Shown here piece after piece: positions 20,702 to 34,944 of a stretch of DNA of 36,588 nt. The translations under genes and the position numbers were made by a program. Positions within the stretch are counted from its first letter, which is position 1. Each line of letters opens with the position of its first letter. This DNA comes from a virus (lineage: Duplodnaviria; Caudoviricetes), in the IMG/VR virus record IMGVR_UViG_3300017645_000191, positions 1-36,588 of that record; one strand, written 5' to 3'. The notes beneath the pieces were generated by a model that saw only the letters and a list, made by a program, of their open reading frames with translations, was not told the origin of the DNA and did not search any database.

Positions 20702-20985
20702 GCAATGCCTCCCGCAATTTCAATGGCGGCAACTTTGCAGCGCTCCCATGCCTTCCTGCACAGACGATGAAGCCTGACAGCCTCAATTCGCCTCTTCGAT
20801 CCAGCCGGAAACTGCCAAAACGAAGCGTCACCGAAGCGGCGTTTATAGATGCGGAAGAACTTGTATTTGCGCCTACGAAGATGTGCAGGAACAGCCATCC
20901 AATGGGGTCTGCAAATCCATTCTGAGCAATCCGCCTTGCGCGTCCGCCGGCAGAAAGGAACGCAACAGGAGAGACGATCGGTCAT
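20698..20985 (-). CDS. Small Zn-finger-like phage protein
   Basis: MTDRLSCCVPFCRRT..EWICRPHW; ATGA coupling to MTase. Confidence 0.7.
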   Translation of the reverse strand: MTDRLSCCVPFCRRTRKADCSEWICRPHWMAVPAHLRRRKYKFFRIYKRRFGDASFWQFPAGSKRRIEAVRLHRLCRKAWERCKVAAIEIAGGIA

Positions 20986-21620
20986 GCCGCCTTCTCCATC
21001 GCATACCCGCCCCATTGATCCGCCATGGCTTCGGCGATTCCTGGAAAGAAGCGGCTGCGCTCCTTCCACCGATCGGGGCCGGGGCTCATGTGATGGACGC
21101 GGGGCACCCTGCCCTCGACGATATTCGTCGGTACGAGGATGGGCAGGTTCTTGAGCCACAAGCACGTGCGCTTTGTCTCGCCATGGCCGAACTGCCATGG
21201 CTGCACGGACTGAGCAGGCTCCTGATAGTTGCGGATGCGCTCCTTCGCGTGCCGATGCATGACGGGGTTCTCGACGGCTATCCGCTCGATTGGCGCGTTC
21301 CAGAGATCCGAGAACAGGGCCGCACCTTCATCCAGCTCAGCCCACATCTGTTCCATTGTGCGGCCACGAGGCGGAACTGAGAGCCAGCGGACGCCCGAAT
21401 TGCACAAACGGGTGCATGGTGGATGCGCGACGATCAGCAGATCCCAACCGTCATGCAGGATCTCACGAACATCGCCAGTGATGTGCTTGTTGGATCGGTC
21501 CTCGGCGGGCAGCAGGTCGCATGACCATGCATCGTGACCACGATTGGCAAAGGCTCGCCGGACGATGCCGGAGAATTCGCAGGCAACGAGAACGCGAAGT
21601 GTGGGCTGAAATGTGCTCAT
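20982..21620 (-). CDS. Short DNA cytosine (C5) methyltransferase-like protein
   Basis: RVLVACEFSG (motif I), AHPPCT (catalytic PC), VENP (motif VI), QFGH..KRT, RSRFFPGIAEAMADQWG. Confidence 0.8.
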   Translation of the reverse strand: MSTFQPTLRVLVACEFSGIVRRAFANRGHDAWSCDLLPAEDRSNKHITGDVREILHDGWDLLIVAHPPCTRLCNSGVRWLSVPPRGRTMEQMWAELDEGAALFSDLWNAPIERIAVENPVMHRHAKERIRNYQEPAQSVQPWQFGHGETKRTCLWLKNLPILVPTNIVEGRVPRVHHMSPGPDRWKERSRFFPGIAEAMADQWGGYAMEKAA

Positions 21621-21625
21621 GATTT

Positions 21626-21758
21626 AAACGTATACGTATTTTATACGTCGCGCAATAGCTTTCAGCTTTCATCATCTTCTCTATGCAGGTCGTCGTGTTG
21701 CAACGGACACCTCAAGAAGTATTCCGCATTTTTTCTGTTGCATTATACGTCTACGTAT
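21626..21758. promoter_or_regulatory. Divergent promoters overlapped by repressor-type operators
   Basis: Leftward TTGCGC-N17-TACGTT ending 6 nt before ATG 21620; rightward -35 TTGCAT at 21738; operators AAACGTATACGTAT (21626-21639) and ATACGTCTACGTAT (21745-21758). Confidence 0.7.
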
Positions 21759-24319: not shown

Positions 24320-24684
24320 GCCTTCCTCCGGCGCTTCTCGACCTGCACCTGCCGGCCACCTTTCACGAAGATCGTCTTCCCCTCCTTGTCGCCAAACACC
24401 TTCACTATCTCGGTCGCGGCGGCTTCCTCGCGCTGCTTCCGCCACTCCTCAATCCCGAGTACGTCCTGCTCAATTTCCGGCGCATGTTCGACGCGGATGC
24501 GTGTGTTGAGGATCTCCTTCACCCGTTCCTTCGCGACACGCAGGGCCTCGCTTGCCGTCTTGCACGTCACGGGCTTCTTACCCCTGAACACCTGACGCCA
24601 GTTCTCCTCGGCGAACAGGCGATAGAGCGGTCGGTACATGCTGCCTACTGGCAAGACGTTGTAGTCTGGTAGAAAATCGCGCAT
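24316..24684 (-). CDS. Hypothetical phage protein
   Basis: ATG 24684 overlapping helicase TGA; MRDFLPDYNVLPVGSMYRP. Confidence 0.65.
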   Translation of the reverse strand: MRDFLPDYNVLPVGSMYRPLYRLFAEENWRQVFRGKKPVTCKTASEALRVAKERVKEILNTRIRVEHAPEIEQDVLGIEEWRKQREEAAATEIVKVFGDKEGKTIFVKGGRQVQVEKRRRKA

Positions 24685-26144
24685 CAGAAACCTGCCAAGT
24701 ATTCTTGCTCCACTGGAGCACGGTCGGACTTGTAGCGAGTGAGCCGCGCCTCGAACACGAGCCGTTGGCGGATGTGAGGATTGCCGAAGCGCGACTTGAT
24801 GGAGCCGACCTCTGCTATGTCTTGCCCGTCCTGCCGAACAGCCGACGGGAACACCTTCTCGATCTTTTTCCAATCGGCCTCGCTACTCGCGATCGCCTTT
24901 CGCTCTTCCAGGAACTTGATGAAGCGGTAGAGATAGAAGATCGCGTCGAAAGGTGTCTTCGCTGGATCGCCCCCAAACAGGTCCATTGAGATCGGCCGGG
25001 GATTGTCGCGCTTCATGCCGAACGAATTGCGCTGATTGAGGACCAGCCACGCTCCACCGGTCATCTCAGCACCTGCCTTGAGTATCTGGCCGATCCCCTT
25101 TGCTTTTGTGCCCTCATCTGCCCTGCGGTCTTCCGGCTTCACTACGCCTATATGATCCACGACGATGAAGGGCACCTTGCCATTCCCATGCCGCTTCACG
25201 AAGGTTCGAGCGATGCCGACAAGCTGCGGCGCTGACTGGTCGGTGCACTTCACCACCTCGAAAGGAAGGGAGCCTACCCACTGCGCAAAGTTCATGCAGG
25301 TCTCAAACTCTCGCTCCGATAGGAGCTTGGCGTCGCGCTGCCGGCGCGCTTCTATCTCGTGCTCCTGCGCTACCATCTGCCGGAGAACCTGGTCGGATGA
25401 CTGGTCATAAGAGAGGAAGCAGACCGGGTGACCTTTCTTCATGGCATGGAGCATCAGCTGCACGGTCAACGACGTCTTGCCCTCACCCGACGACGACAGC
25501 AGACCGTATAGGTTCCCTCCTTCGAAACACGGTTCAGAGATGACCTCTGCAATCTCGTCGAGCGCGATCGGCACTCCATTCACGTCTTGGCGCTGGTATG
25601 AGGCTGAGAGAGCGTCAACGTAGGACTGGCCGGCATTCTTGATCGGGGCTGCCTTCAGAGCCTCAGCACGGACAGCGGCCATCCGCTCCTCTATAGGCTC
25701 GAAGGCTTTCAGCGGATCCTCACCCGGTGCCAGGTTGAAGTACGTGTCGACGCCTTCCTGCAGCGCGCTGATTGCCTGCCGAGCAACCCATGCATCATAG
25801 ATCGCTAGGGCATAGTCGGCCGCGTTGACGATGGTGACCGCTTCCGTGCAAAGCCTTGCCAGATATGCCGCTACCGTCGCCTGCTCGCCATCGATCTTCA
25901 GGCCATCGATCGTCGTGGGCAGATGGCTGCGGATGGTTACAGGGTTCACGCCTCGGCCGGAAGCTAGCGTCTGCCCAATCACCTCGTAGATCTTGCGGTG
26001 GAGAGGCTCGTAGAAGTGCTGGGGTTCGAGGAGGCGGTTGATCTTATCGAAGGCTGCGTTGTTGATCAGGATGGCGCCAAGGAGCGCACCCTCCGCCTCC
26101 ACATTCTCAGGCACGGCCCGGAGGTTGGGATCGTAAGCGTTCAT
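24684..26144 (-). CDS. DnaB-like replicative helicase
   Basis: PENVEAEGALLGAIL..HFYEPLHRKIY N-domain; Walker A SGEGKTS; IVVDHI; KSRFG. Confidence 0.9.
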   Translation of the reverse strand: MNAYDPNLRAVPENVEAEGALLGAILINNAAFDKINRLLEPQHFYEPLHRKIYEVIGQTLASGRGVNPVTIRSHLPTTIDGLKIDGEQATVAAYLARLCTEAVTIVNAADYALAIYDAWVARQAISALQEGVDTYFNLAPGEDPLKAFEPIEERMAAVRAEALKAAPIKNAGQSYVDALSASYQRQDVNGVPIALDEIAEVISEPCFEGGNLYGLLSSSGEGKTSLTVQLMLHAMKKGHPVCFLSYDQSSDQVLRQMVAQEHEIEARRQRDAKLLSEREFETCMNFAQWVGSLPFEVVKCTDQSAPQLVGIARTFVKRHGNGKVPFIVVDHIGVVKPEDRRADEGTKAKGIGQILKAGAEMTGGAWLVLNQRNSFGMKRDNPRPISMDLFGGDPAKTPFDAIFYLYRFIKFLEERKAIASSEADWKKIEKVFPSAVRQDGQDIAEVGSIKSRFGNPHIRQRLVFEARLTRYKSDRAPVEQEYLAGF

Positions 26145-27401: not shown

Positions 27402-27959
27402 TTATTCTTCGTCTTCGTTGAAGACGTCGTCTTCGCTGTCACCCTTGATCAGCTCATCTCCAGCCGGCTCAAGGGAAAGGATCAGCTCGCGCTCCTTGGT
27501 GCCTTCATGGAATGCTTCGATCCATGCTTGCCCCTGCTCGCTGTCGATCGCGAAGGGGTTCTGGTCCATGCCCTGCCCCATGATGCCGACGTAGCGGCCG
27601 AGCTCTTTCGCTTTGGCTGAGCTATCGCGGCTGGGCTGCTCAACGCGGAACATGTCGAGCTGCTTCTTCTCGATCGGTGTGCCCAGGATCATCAGGTATT
27701 CAGTCAGCGCCTTGAGGTAGGCGACCTTATCCTCAACCTTGCCGGACTTCTTGATCGATAGAGCGTCCTTGGCAGCGCCGAGATGGATCCCCTTCGCTTC
27801 GACGTGCTTCAGCGTGTTCCGGTAATTGCCGTTGGCGGATTCGAACTCCGCCTTTGCGCGCTGAATCTTACCAAGCTGAAGAGCGATAACGGCGTCTTCT
27901 GCCGGTCCATTCCGCTTTAGCTCGACCACGTTGTCTTCCTTCTTTGCAGCCCTTGCCAT
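27402..27959 (-). CDS. GapR(DUF2312)-like N-domain plus RMF-like C-terminal motif protein
   Basis: AAGGAG RBS; YRNTLKHVEAKGI..ALSIKK..EYLMILG; AKELGRYVGIMG..NPF..QAWIEAFHEG. Confidence 0.55.
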   Translation of the reverse strand: MARAAKKEDNVVELKRNGPAEDAVIALQLGKIQRAKAEFESANGNYRNTLKHVEAKGIHLGAAKDALSIKKSGKVEDKVAYLKALTEYLMILGTPIEKKQLDMFRVEQPSRDSSAKAKELGRYVGIMGQGMDQNPFAIDSEQGQAWIEAFHEGTKERELILSLEPAGDELIKGDSEDDVFNEDEE

Positions 27960-28777: not shown

Positions 28778-28929
28778 CAGAGCCCTGCCCGACGCGCAGC
28801 GTCTTCAACGGAGGCAGGCTGCTCGCTGTCGATCTCAGCGGCCTTGCCACGGTCGCGCCAAGCGGTGAGAACCGTCGGCGCAACCAATATAGCAACCCAG
28901 AGGGTGAGGATCAGACAGAGCGCCGTCAA
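28777..28929 (-). CDS. 50-aa membrane peptide (not in ORF track)
   Basis: TTG overlaps cro stop and TGA overlaps next ATG; MTALCLILTLWVAILVAPTVLTAWRDRGKAAEID... Confidence 0.55.
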   Translation of the reverse strand: MTALCLILTLWVAILVAPTVLTAWRDRGKAAEIDSEQPASVEDAARRAGL

Positions 28930-29156
28930 GCCTCGACCTCATCGGCCAGTTCGACATACTCAAAGAGCAGCGCGTCGTTCCACGCGATGCCACGATCTTT
29001 AGCTGCTTTCCGGATGGACTTGGCCACCGTCAGGGTGATCTCAGAGCCTGCCTCGAGACGGGACACGGTTGCTTGCGTGACGCCGATCGCGCTCGCGAAC
29101 TCGCCCTGCGTGTTCATACCGAAAAGGTTTGTGCGGATGTGCTTTATCACGTTCAT
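28926..29156 (-). CDS. cro: Cro-like HTH protein
   Basis: TQGEFASAIGVTQATVSRLEAG; divergent from cI; apparently leaderless. Confidence 0.85.
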   Translation of the reverse strand: MNVIKHIRTNLFGMNTQGEFASAIGVTQATVSRLEAGSEITLTVAKSIRKAAKDRGIAWNDALLFEYVELADEVEA

Positions 29157-29249: not shown

Positions 29250-29924
29250 ATGAAGCTGACCGACATCATCATCGGCCTTGAGAAGGCCGGCCTTACGCAG
29301 AACATGATCGCCAATGCGGTCAGTGAGCGAGGCGTTAAAACCACCCAGGCAACGATCTCGCGGATCAAGAAGGGTTCGCAGACAAACGCGGATATGGATC
29401 GCGCTTTGCGTCAACTCGCAAGCGAGTACGGCTTGATCGCTGAGAGCCACAGCCGCGCACCAGGTGCGGTCAAGGACTACATCGATGAAGTAGATGTTTA
29501 CACAGGGCTCGGAGGAGGAGGCTTGTCGATCGTCGAAACAACGACGCAGAACGGGATGACATTTGCCACCGAGGCGATCCGCGATCATTGGCGGATACCT
29601 GAGTACATGCTGAATCGCTTCAATGCTCAGCCGCGGCACATCAAAGCATTTCCGGCCCAGGGTGATTCGATGTCGCCGACGATTCAGGATGGCGATGTCG
29701 TGTTCGTCGACACCCGCCACAAAGTGCCATCGCCTCCTGGCATTTACGTTCTGGCCGATGAGTTTGGTGGCGTAGTTACGAAGCGACTGGAAGTGATATC
29801 GCGCCCGAGCGACGAAACTGTCACCGTGCGGATCTCTTCAGATAATCCAAACCACAATGACCGCGAACTCACGCTCGACGAGATTCACATCATTGGCAGA
29901 TACATCGGCCGATTCACGGTGTAA
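29250..29924 (+). CDS. cI: CI-like repressor (XRE HTH plus S24 peptidase)
   Basis: TQATISRIKKG HTH; GDSMSP catalytic Ser and VTKRL catalytic Lys. Confidence 0.92.
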   Translation: MKLTDIIIGLEKAGLTQNMIANAVSERGVKTTQATISRIKKGSQTNADMDRALRQLASEYGLIAESHSRAPGAVKDYIDEVDVYTGLGGGGLSIVETTTQNGMTFATEAIRDHWRIPEYMLNRFNAQPRHIKAFPAQGDSMSPTIQDGDVVFVDTRHKVPSPPGIYVLADEFGGVVTKRLEVISRPSDETVTVRISSDNPNHNDRELTLDEIHIIGRYIGRFTV

Positions 29925-29929
29925 CGACG

Positions 29930-30538
29930 ACCTCGGTTGCCGTCTTTTCTCTCACGTAGACGCTAAGTTCTGAGACGTTGAAGAAACTAGAATCTTCCTT
30001 CTCTAGAGCCGTATTCTGAGACGTATGAGAACTATCTCCATTCTATCCCGTCAGGGATAGAGGCTTAGGAAACGGCGCAGTAATCCCTTGCACGCCGAAG
30101 AGCATCGACGCCAAGGGTAACTGCACGGTCAAGACAGAGCCTTGAGGTTCCCGTATGCATCCCCGCCCGGCCATATGACGGCCTGTCCCACCAGCGGTTC
30201 ATGGTCGGTTTCTATTGGCTGGTGTGCCTCACGCGCCGGGGCCGATCTCCCGCTGTGCTTGCGCGCCCTTCTCACCTGATTGCCGGTGAGCCGCTTGTGC
30301 CCCTGTCCTTGCACTTCCAAGCAGGGCGGACAACCGCACCCCTACTGCACGAGAATCGCAGCTTTCGCCGCTCAACCGTGAGGCCGTCCCTTTCAGGATA
30401 GGCACCCTTGCCTGTCCTGGATGACGTTTGACTTGAGGAATTCAGTGGTTCGCTCTATGTTTGAGCCCACTGGATACCGGCCGCCAAACCAGTTTCATCC
30501 AGTCTGGCCCCGACCGTAGCGAAACGGTGCGGGGCTTT
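29930..30538 (-). ncRNA. Candidate ~600-nt structured noncoding RNA (putative pre-primer/origin RNA)
   Basis: Promoter TTGACG-N17-CTACAA (30572-30544); no credible ORF; many stems whose G-U pairs and GAAA tetraloops favour the minus strand (30075-30126, 30358-30371, 30387-30398); 3' end unknown. Confidence 0.5.
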
Positions 30539-30545
30539 CTTTTTT
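30469..30545 (+). ncRNA. ~77-nt antisense sRNA (CopA/RNA I-like architecture)
   Basis: Promoter TTGAGG-N17-TATGTT (30433-30461); stem ACTGGAT/ATCCAGT with CCGCCAAA loop; terminator GCCCCG..CGGGGC-TTTCTTTTTT. Confidence 0.7.
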
Positions 30546-30571
30546 GTAGGCCCGGCTCGGCTCACTCGTCA

Positions 30572-30629
30572 ATACGTATAAAATTTAATCCGCATACGTA
30601 TTGACAGCAATACGTCGGCGCATTAGCGT
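30572..30629 (+). promoter_or_regulatory. pL/OL-like promoter and operators
   Basis: TTGACA-N17-TAGCGT (30601-30629); ATCCGCATACGTAT 30588, ATACGTCGGCGCAT 30610, half site ATACGTAT 30572. Confidence 0.8.
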
Positions 30630-30988
30630 TGATCATATCCAAGCAGGAATGATCGAAATGCTGACGAGCCACCTCATCCCCCTCAATGACGTACCCTCAG
30701 CTGATCATTCCGGCGATCACACCGTTGGAGGCCATGATGTAACCCGCAACGCGCTGCGCGTACCCGCTCGTATTGTCCTGAATGGTCGCCTGGCCGTGGG
30801 CGTAGACACGGTCACCAATTCGCCCGAACGGGCACGAACTGAACCCGCCGAGGCCGCAGTTACGGCGGGGACTGATTTGCGCAAACCTGTTGCTGCGGAA
30901 CAGGGCCAAATCATCAGGGAAGGCGGTGCGCGCCGAGAAACCGACCGCTTGCGCGGTGACGCTTCACGCCCTGATGCCGATTTCATAT

Positions 30989-31059
30989 CGCGCTCGCTTA
31001 CCTCCTCCCAAGCGATCGTGAAGCCGGAGGCAGGCTCCCTCCTCCCGTCTGTCTCCGGC
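30989..31059 (+). ncRNA. Cuckoo/alpha-r14-like tandem hairpins with CCUCCUCCC loops
   Basis: TCGCTT-A-CCTCCTCCC-AAGCGA and GCCGGAGGCAGG-CTCCCTCCTCCCG-TCTGTCTCCGGC. Confidence 0.65.
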
Positions 31060-31082
31060 AACCCTTCCCATGAGGTGACGGC

Positions 31083-34128: not shown

Positions 34129-34944
34129 ATGTCGAAGTCTGACGCCCCTGCTCTACGGCTTATTGTCGAACGCGGTCCGCGACTGGTCCCGGCGTCAGCC
34201 TTCGACGCCGAGCGGCTGGATACATATCAGGTTGGCCGTGTCATCCGGCTCACCCCTGTAGAGGAAGCGGACCGAAAGGACATCCGCCGCTGGTGGGCGA
34301 TCCTGAACCGCGCCGTTAAGGACGCGAAGACGCCATGGCGCACGCCTGCTCAAGCCAGTGAGGCAATCAAGCTAGCGCTCGGCATCGTCGAGTATGGGAA
34401 GACGGTCAACGGCAAGTTCATGCAATGGCCGAAGTCGCTCAAGGAGCTTGATGACCAAGAATTGGCTACGGCAGTTCGTGATATGGCCGCAATTGTCAGG
34501 GAGATAACCGGCGTCGATCCTCTCGACTGGAACAAAGAGTCGTCCGACGTTGGTCGCGACGAACAAGAGAAGCCCGAGACAGACGCCCCCTCGCCTCACT
34601 CGGGCTTGGGCGGCAGCGGAGCCACCCCCGGGTCCGCTGCCGCCGACCCTTCTGTCTCCTCACACGACAGCGACCAGAATGGCACGACTGCGCCAGATCC
34701 TGAGCTCGTGCGCCTCATGATGGAAGAGTGCATCGACACGATGATCCGCGATGCATTTTCCGAACCCGCAATCGAACGGCCGGCGAAGGTCGAGAAACTT
34801 CGTGCTGTGTTCTTGGAGCCTTATAACCTCGGCTCGCATGCCAAGTTTGTAGATCTCTGTGCTGAGACGGTTCGGCGCATCATCGGCAAACCGCAAGAGA
34901 AGGTGCGCGCGAAAGATTTCCTCATGAGCAAGAGGCCGATCTGA
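34129..34944 (+). CDS. Hypothetical protein (DUF1367/NinB-like N-terminal part)
   Basis: LVPASAFDAERL, RRWWAILN, IKLALG..PKSLKELD; low-complexity linker. Confidence 0.65.
   Translation: MSKSDAPALRLIVERGPRLVPASAFDAERLDTYQVGRVIRLTPVEEADRKDIRRWWAILNRAVKDAKTPWRTPAQASEAIKLALGIVEYGKTVNGKFMQWPKSLKELDDQELATAVRDMAAIVREITGVDPLDWNKESSDVGRDEQEKPETDAPSPHSGLGGSGATPGSAAADPSVSSHDSDQNGTTAPDPELVRLMMEECIDTMIRDAFSEPAIERPAKVEKLRAVFLEPYNLGSHAKFVDLCAETVRRIIGKPQEKVRAKDFLMSKRPI

Follow-up and report, generated by a model that had tools for sequence, protein, structure and literature searches.

Rep-free replication primed by an RNA has been described for ColE1 and for the MRB plasmids (PMC3035462). In ColE1, R-loop formation requires base pairing between a stretch of rG residues in the RNA and a stretch of dC residues in the template (PMC4412123), and the trigger of persistent hybrid formation has been called speculative (PMC5043065). 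The MRB plasmids pB1067 and pES213 have an ORF-free origin of about 500 bp, with a two-stem-loop RNA I of about 68 nt that includes a terminator, and with an RNA II of at least 465 nt that covers RNA I; in pES213, RNA I is kept and the body of RNA II differs (PMC3035462). Among tailed phages, T4 starts replication at oriF and oriG with a transcript that persists as a hybrid (PMC4412123, PMC12599619), a likeness to what is proposed below for another tailed phage, and the T4 origin R-loop is usable as a primer or to let primase act (PMC4412123). In contrast to the phage analyzed here, T4 is a virulent phage that encodes its own replisome and relies on a promoter combined with an unwinding element, and the passages on its origins describe neither a conserved folded RNA nor antisense control (PMC4412123, PMC12599619). 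A literature search that covered papers without their supplements returned no report of a temperate integrating phage with RNA-primed replication or of the RNAs described below. These folds may be entered, with no function assigned, in large catalogues of RNA motifs predicted in phages.

The window, that is, the whole stretch of 36,588 nt that was analyzed, is an entire viral record classed as a provirus and 81% complete. It represents a lambdoid-type phage with the structural genes, the early-right operon and cro all on the minus strand. Beyond the cro-like gene (28926-29156, minus strand, from a PHROG search) lie the cI repressor gene (29250-29924, plus strand, PHROG repressor matches), an interval of 650 bp and the pL operon with exonuclease, RecT and integrase genes. 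The cumulative GC skew has its minimum at 31-32 kb, but transcription diverges at the same place, so that this minimum was not counted as evidence. A DnaB-like replicative helicase (24684-26144, minus strand), which has no initiator gene adjoining it, served as the marker of the clade. The relatives are alphaproteobacterial prophages residing in genomes of Rhizobiaceae, Phyllobacteriaceae, Brucellaceae and Bartonellaceae, and the core genes over about 100 loci encode the helicase, a RuvC-like protein, a GapR-like protein and CI; an initiator is not among them.

A sequence-only reading of the window had singled out the interval between cI and pL as a candidate protein-free, antisense-controlled replicon of the ColE1/MRB kind, and all features that it named were found in their places. 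The leftward promoter (30544-30572, minus strand) consists of TTGACG (30572-30567), a 17-nt spacer and CTACAA (30549-30544), is back to back with pL and is convergent with cI. The operator noticed next to its −35 box turned out to be an 11-bp inverted repeat (30569-30579 and 30594-30604) that overlaps the −35 boxes of both the leftward promoter and pL (TTGACA, 30601-30606). Its core, ATACGTAT, occurs four times in the window, compared with 0.08 expected occurrences, and one of the copies is at OR (29175). Thus, the repeat is likely to be the CI operator OL, judging from its sequence and position. A third copy of ATACGTAT at 21626-21650, just 5' of a DNA methyltransferase gene (20982-21620, minus strand), possibly marks a third repressor-controlled promoter. 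With a strict pattern, 9 of 24 homologues of the RNA family introduced below (type A; L120 and L129 were left out of this count) had a promoter-like match in the corresponding position, compared with 1.65% of 2000 random windows. A plain sigma-70 scan of the window called neither promoter and did not call the terminator.

From the promoter match, the family alignment and the strand tests, a long RNA II-like transcript of about 500 nt is predicted on the minus strand (30040-30538), which would run from the CI-overlapped promoter to just past the repeat R2 described below, both of its ends being predictions. No same-strand gene follows it in the window. The impression that the interval contains no credible ORF held up, because the indel lengths among homologues leave remainders of 1, 2 and 0 after division by 3 in 148, 59 and 25 cases, respectively, which shows that there is no conserved ORF and rules out a hidden one. 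In the RNA library of run X5, a single unstranded contig spans 29273-30357 at a depth of 7.5, compared with 2-5 for the other listed pieces, and run X13 has no piece over the core; the contigs of both runs are unstranded and cover the whole stretch in a scattered manner. Folding of the whole interval yielded z-scores of −4.7 on both strands (20 shuffles each), so that fold stability alone picks no strand; the homologues do.

Helicase-anchored and pattern searches retrieved 43 loci with homologues of the RNA (31 distinct sequences, type A), most of which were found by a fixed pattern. The alignment of 29 sequences (two short ones were left out) contains 56 base pairs, with 92.8% of the 1617 cells paired and two-sided changes at 29 pairs. 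None of 500 shuffles reached the same level, and slid controls reached 36-43%. The RNAalifold structure alone comprises 43 pairs, with 95.4% paired and 17 two-sided. Covariation among homologues, which had been named beforehand as a check, is thus strong on the leftward strand. The consensus energy is −96 on this strand, compared with −74 on the opposite one, the leftward strand has the better z-score in 26 of the 29 sequences, and G-U cells outnumber A-C cells by 213 to 1, a count that is biased by how the structure was built. The proposal that the stems favor the minus strand is therefore supported by the homologues, not by folding of the interval alone. The 257-nt core of the window has a z-score of −0.7 and is not more stable than its shuffles, and the family mean is −1.5.

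The conserved core (30158-30314, minus strand) contains the CUCACC/GGUGAG and GCCG-UCAUA-UGGC hairpins. In a scan of the same alignment, the two pairs of columns with the highest scores led to two 4-bp helices that cross the nested ones, and the core is accordingly predicted to form two pseudoknots, 30314-30311 with 30258-30255 and 30224-30221 with 30192-30189, the helices having been chosen on the alignment in which they were then counted. The 5' domain (30339-30404), with its UCCU-GAAA-GGGA hairpin, is present in about 17-18 of the 31 sequences. The last long hairpin (30076-30125; helices 10-11) is formed by GUGCAGU/ACUGCGC with the inner GCGUCGA/UCGGCGU, and the long-range closing helix shows one two-sided change only. 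Two other stems need correction: CACCAGC/GCUGGUG is a predicted 4-bp pseudoknot helix, and GCGGC-GAAA-GCUGC lies at the stated position but in a variable part of the family. The tract GGGCGGGG (30168-30161), which had been taken for a free G-tract, is mostly one arm of the covarying helix 8. Since the G-run is paired in type A and varies to CCGUGG, it was dropped as a nucleator of the hybrid, be it as a free tract or as a G-quadruplex. In an unrelated RNA of the same phages (type B), the G-run faces a C-rich arm in the alignment, as read by eye.

The Rfam search that had been proposed yielded nothing at gathering score for the window or for the cassettes of 14 further loci (types A, B, C and protein, see below). 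Weak matches of the window to traJ-II and rnk-leader RNAs were taken as chance; the former (RF01760) scored 20.7 bits against a threshold of 40, with an E-value of 0.61, on the strand opposite to the conserved fold. BLASTN of the window element gave no real match among annotated phages or 72,556 plasmids, BLASTN of a second type A variant gave none in annotated phages or plasmids, and an exact 21-mer of the element was absent from the viral contigs searched. None of 401 genomes drawn from the host order contained the type A pattern, so that type A is rare among the genomes examined. A relationship to ColE1 or MRB by sequence found no support, as neither a match to the Rfam families of ColE1 RNA I and RNA II (E-values up to 10 included) nor a match in the 72,556 plasmids was obtained.

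Several column pairs of high information in the type A alignment are not complementary, and all of these belong to an imperfect direct repeat. Its copies, R1 (30122-30147, minus strand, about 26 nt) and R2 (30045-30069, minus strand), lie just 5' and just 3' of the last hairpin and covary in identity. In 30 homologues (one was skipped), R1 scored 25.0 against its own R2 and 15.6 ± 4.9 against the R2 of the others, a difference that was reached in 0 of 10,000 permutations. The covariation persisted on 22 distinct R1 sequences, and the mismatches are at fixed positions, which argues against gene conversion or a simple duplication. A complement of R1 in the upstream RNA was not detected beyond the non-cognate level (8.5 compared with 8.1 nt). 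R1 and R2 thus stay identical in their letters while neither has a partner in the RNA, so that a common partner is likely, the simplest one being the template DNA strand. By analogy to ColE1 RNA II, R1 could pair with the template strand at R2, which would make R2 the site where the RNA-DNA hybrid starts. The likeness to ColE1 is that an upstream RNA segment equals the non-template strand near the 3' end and can pair with the template (PMC5043065, PMC4412123); the difference is that the pairing segment of about 26 nt is freely variable here and is not a G-run. A point against hybrid nucleation is that the predicted single-strandedness of R1 does not exceed that of the remaining core (0.39 for both), and R1 folds partly as a small hairpin. 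The unrelated type B RNA has the same R1-hairpin-R2 layout, with scores of 27.0 and 19.5 for own and foreign repeats in 22 sequences (0 of 10,000 permutations; control p = 0.37), and the single sequence tested of a fourth RNA-like type contains an R1/R2-like repeat. In type C, the covariation was not significant (p = 0.75 in 8 and p = 0.34 in 5 sequences).

A direct repeat on both sides of a hairpin, next to a compact double-pseudoknot core with invariant unpaired stretches, would also suit a selfish or catalytic, ribozyme-like RNA that displaced the initiator, with R1/R2 as a self-recognition or duplication signature. We consider this very improbable: each genome has a single copy of the RNA, whose slot and orientation never vary, neither a reverse transcriptase nor a transposase is among the core genes, its carriers would have lost their sole initiator, and the fixed R1/R2 mismatches argue against duplication or gene conversion.

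The convergent small RNA of the window is predicted at 30468-30546 (plus strand, about 78 nt) as an RNA I-like antisense RNA with a CGCCAA-loop stem-loop followed by an intrinsic terminator. It is preceded by a promoter-like site (30433-30461, plus strand; TTGAGG, 17 nt, TATGTT) whose boxes, as judged by eye, are kept in L002 and L003. The fold of this RNA comprises two stem-loops and a U-tail (z = −3.4; one of 200 shuffles was as good), and the RNA is conserved in loci L002, L003, L041 and L055. In the long RNA, sequence and fold place a UUGGCG loop at 30482-30487 (minus strand), which is likely to make the first contact with the antisense RNA. A UUGGCG loop on the target RNA is shared with the Inc RNA system of IncI/ColIb-P9 (PMC10724649, PMC3753616); however, Inc RNA blocks rep translation, and no rep gene follows the RNA of the window. 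When the first 71 nt of the long RNA were blocked, its minimum-energy structure changed, as computed by a method that ignores pseudoknots.

Antisense control as a defining part of the element was not borne out, as only about a quarter of the type A sequences (7 of 31, some with truncated upstream DNA) have the antisense terminator. Counted by cassette (three short loci were dropped), the terminator is present in 27 of 44 RNA cassettes (17 of 17 of type C, 6 of 20 of type B, one of them doubtful, and 4 of 7 of type A) and in 0 of 20 protein cassettes. The antisense RNA is thus an accessory tied to RNA cassettes; its terminator might, in addition, end cI read-through before pL. With ColE1, the element shares the lack of a Rep protein, a structured RNA of about 500 nt and a short antisense RNA over its 5' end (PMC5043065, PMC4412123), an overlap that is predicted from geometry in the window and is optional in the family. 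It differs from ColE1 in its place in an integrating temperate phage with a CI-type operator and a phage helicase, and in its antisense RNA, which has two stem-loops and is not present in every member. As in the MRB plasmids, two stem-loops and a terminator overlap the long RNA, and in L003 the small RNA of the window precedes a type B body, which parallels pES213 (PMC3035462). The MRB elements, on the other hand, belong to Vibrionaceae plasmids, RNA I is defining there and optional here, and no match to the pB1067 RNA I region of about 110 bp was found among the plasmids searched.

The slot behind the promoter that is back to back with pL was surveyed in 86 distinct phages sharing the DnaB-like helicase. 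It holds a type A RNA in 7, a type B RNA in 22, a type C RNA in 18 and an HTH_36 ORF in 20 phages. Altogether, 67 of the 86 phages have exactly one cassette type, and two types were found together in none. If the cassettes were independent, the chance of no overlap would be 4e-9 to 5e-14; the exclusivity is partly due to there being only one promoter-proximal slot. All cassettes are on the helicase strand, 0-4 kb from the 3' end of cI. The type B RNA has about 255 nt and is unrelated to type A, and the HTH_36 ORFs encode about 100-120 aa. On a quick helicase tree with 68 rows, 30 changes of cassette type were counted, compared with a mean of 36.0 after shuffling, and two sister pairs (L018/L020 and L027/L076) combine an RNA and a protein cassette. 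The cassette types are thus scattered on the helicase tree, indicating that they were swapped many times.

The ORFs in the slot match Pfam HTH_36 (18 of 18 tested) and PHROG replication-initiation families (7 of 9 tested). Directly 3' of the HTH_36 genes come direct repeats in pairs, then shorter ones, a run rich in A and T and a CTCTGAG word. The direct repeats are 11-26 nt long in 18 distinct tails, compared with at most 10 nt in 293 of 300 background cases and with 6-9 nt for the best repeat of the type A tails. Repeats adjoining an initiator gene together with such an AT-rich run are the iteron-origin layout of lambdoid and plasmid origins. From the families and the repeats, we infer that the HTH_36 cassette is an origin. 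The element of the window agrees with the lambdoid (lambda O-like) and sister HTH_36 cassettes in slot, promoter position and orientation, and differs in having neither an initiator ORF nor an iteron pair of that length.

The remaining 19 phages could not be assigned to a cassette; nine of these were inspected, and the other ten end before the slot or have no called repressor. Type A occupies the slot of L014, a contig that is the same as L111, and the slot ORFs of L035 and L059 match PHROG replication-initiation families. L024 and L066 have an HTH_36-like ORF (tested for L024 only) followed by 24-bp repeats. L012 and L075 carry the fourth RNA-like type, and L050 is weakly C-like. The slot of L025 (1200-1500) contains several short repeats and a run rich in AT and purines but lacks both an RNA and a gene, and this counts against the interpretation of the RNA as an origin.

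The suggestion that the phage has no initiator gene was upheld: PHROG, Pfam and our own profile revealed none in the window, the record being 81% complete, and five type A records of 90-100% completeness also are without HTH_36 and phrog_270/391. Over whole records, HTH_36 exceeded the cut-off in 11 of 12 protein-type and in 0 of 38 RNA-type phages, with three hits below the cut-off. Among the gene families present in at least five loci, HTH_36 alone excludes the RNAs (p = 6e-16; next family, 3e-4). phrog_391 was detected in 5 of 5 protein-type controls and, weakly, in one of 39 RNA-type records. The only phrog_270/391 match among RNA-type records, in locus L018, was discarded, as it belongs to a family of small HTH ORFs that accompanies every cassette type. 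A DUF1376 scan gave no matches in any record, controls included. Of the candidates for a hidden initiator in the window, the ORF at 34129-34944 has DUF1367 relatives, and the gene at 27402-27959 (minus strand) is GapR/RMF-like by features only; several ORFs have no assignment. The GapR/RMF-like gene is a core gene, present in 87 of about 100 loci, and could be a helicase-loading aid across all cassette types. An ORF with DnaA domain IV only occurs in 21 of 50 records, independently of the cassette type (15 of 38 RNA-type and 6 of 12 protein-type), and is absent from the window. In phage BiPBO1, such an ORF has been called an initiator (PMC4729917), and it could act as one in some relatives.

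The slot exchange, the mutual exclusion and the R1/R2 repeat lend strong comparative support to the idea that the RNA does the job of the initiator. This part of the original proposal is supported; antisense control as its defining feature, nucleation by the G-run and kinship to ColE1 or MRB are not. The HTH_36 split also bears on a different reading, namely that the RNA acts in the lysis-lysogeny switch, as a regulator or as an immunity RNA, or is a cis-acting leader for cargo genes, and that replication depends on an unrecognized protein or on host restart. Immunity RNAs of this kind have precedents in P4 CI and P1 c4, and the position in the immunity region, the CI-type operator and ORFs of the window without assignment are compatible with it. 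So is a same-strand gene that follows many type A copies at 60-130 nt. Directly 3' of the RNA, however, neither the window nor a number of homologues (among them L041, L108, L120 and L129) have such a gene, which others do have, and Rfam families of the P4 CI/P1 c4 type had no match in the window or in the 14 loci examined. As this reading leaves both the distribution of HTH_36 (0 of 38 compared with 11 of 12) and the covariation of the direct repeat R1/R2 unexplained, we regard it as unlikely.

Behind the RNA of the window there is an AT-richer tail (29935-30044) with 9-bp repeats (30022-30014 and 29976-29968) that contain the TCTGAG/CTCAGA word; we infer that it is the region of helicase entry. 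Within 200 nt behind the cassettes, 16 of 19 tails of the protein type and 13 of 31 tails of type A contain the word (mean 2.7 and maximum 8 after shuffling), often followed by GTAGAAGG. It was not significant in type B (5 of 20) and was absent from type C (0 of 17), the tail boundary being uncertain for many of these. The word, which type A in part has in common with the protein-type cassettes, is either a common downstream site or a common recombination boundary. Its presence behind both kinds of cassette fits a mechanism in which the cassette is an origin and the RNA is not a primer but opens or marks the DNA, by a transient R-loop or as a scaffold, so that the helicase and host primase load. 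All of the slot-exchange evidence fits this version and priming equally, every phage has kept its own DnaB-like helicase, and in T4, the origin R-loop may let primase act (PMC4412123). Yet the antisense module, which is confined to RNA cassettes, matches the ColE1 pattern slightly better, and we judge an origin of this non-priming kind to be quite unlikely.

It appears fairly probable to us that the interval is a CI-repressed, RNA-primed origin in which a doubly pseudoknotted RNA replaces the initiator protein. Such an origin would most likely work like those of ColE1 and MRB without belonging to either family. Upon induction, CI would leave the operator, and host RNA polymerase would transcribe leftward from about 30538. 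The folded core would keep R1 near the polymerase. While the polymerase passes R2, R1 would pair with the template strand and keep the duplex from closing, so that the nascent RNA would remain hybridized as an R-loop. A host polymerase would extend its 3' end, possibly after trimming by RNase H, and the phage DnaB-like helicase would enter on the strand displaced in the AT-richer tail. The leading fork would then run with the early-right and late operons. The antisense RNA would be a second, optional lock that changes the 5' fold, guards the lysogen from leaky firing and may cap the copy number. More generally, initiators of these phages may be swappable cartridges, either proteins or independently evolved folded RNAs that, under control of the prophage repressor, locate their own origin by a reprogrammable template-pairing guide of 25-35 nt, a generalization to which we give an even chance. 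If the RNA-primed origin is real, it would explain how rhizobial prophages of a large clade, which have a helicase and no gene for an initiator, replicate, three or four orphan families of structured RNA would gain a function, and protein and RNA initiators would have been exchanged repeatedly at a single locus. The long, covarying R1/R2 repeat would make the trigger of hybrid formation at RNA-primed origins accessible to compensatory mutation, and orthogonal, tunable origins for alphaproteobacterial vectors could result.

The analysis of the relatives also revealed several additional features. Type B RNAs lie at 636-892 in L003, at 1400-1658 in L018 and in 20 more loci, and have no Rfam match. 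Type C RNAs, for example at 4770-5214 in L033 and 3170-3619 in L004, always come with the antisense terminator and have a common 5' part and at least two different 3' bodies; one subtype contains a hairpin with a CAUAUG/CAUAG loop similar to that of type A. The fourth RNA-like cassette (L075, 1760-2150; L012, 120-510) combines an antisense terminator with the R1/R2-like repeat. At 1446-1828 of L006, a type B body directly adjoins one half of the antisense hairpin of type C, a junction that is likely to be a recombination scar of a cassette swap. In L059, tandem 6-nt repeats at about 1095-1270, in the leftward operon, would encode a peptide rich in Gly-Tyr/Ser/Asp. Rfam matches in relatives were a DUF3800-VIII RNA (L009, 13778-13843), an abiF RNA (L033, 14750-14785) and a tRNA-like element (L077, 5238-5318).

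Sibling types are also present in cultured phages, type C in BiPBO1 and type B in Yong-M2-251/Ssp-JY39, and types B and C are represented by named non-pathogenic lysogens (L097, L069, L073 and L067). A type B RNA resides in a prophage remnant of a 464-kb Pseudochrobactrum replicon (L140, 12001-12222), again between the recombination operon and the repressor. Two genomes deposited as Synechococcus phages, OM868082.1 (L139, 16159-16386) and PP438429.1, have the type B RNA and the gene order of the clade. Because this RNA is otherwise found only in alphaproteobacterial prophages, the Synechococcus host label may merit checking. Finally, the pL leader region of the window (30983-31068, plus strand) contains two CCUCCUCCC-loop hairpins that resemble the small RNAs ar14/CcsR1, with E-values of 7e-5 and 2e-5, under the gathering score.
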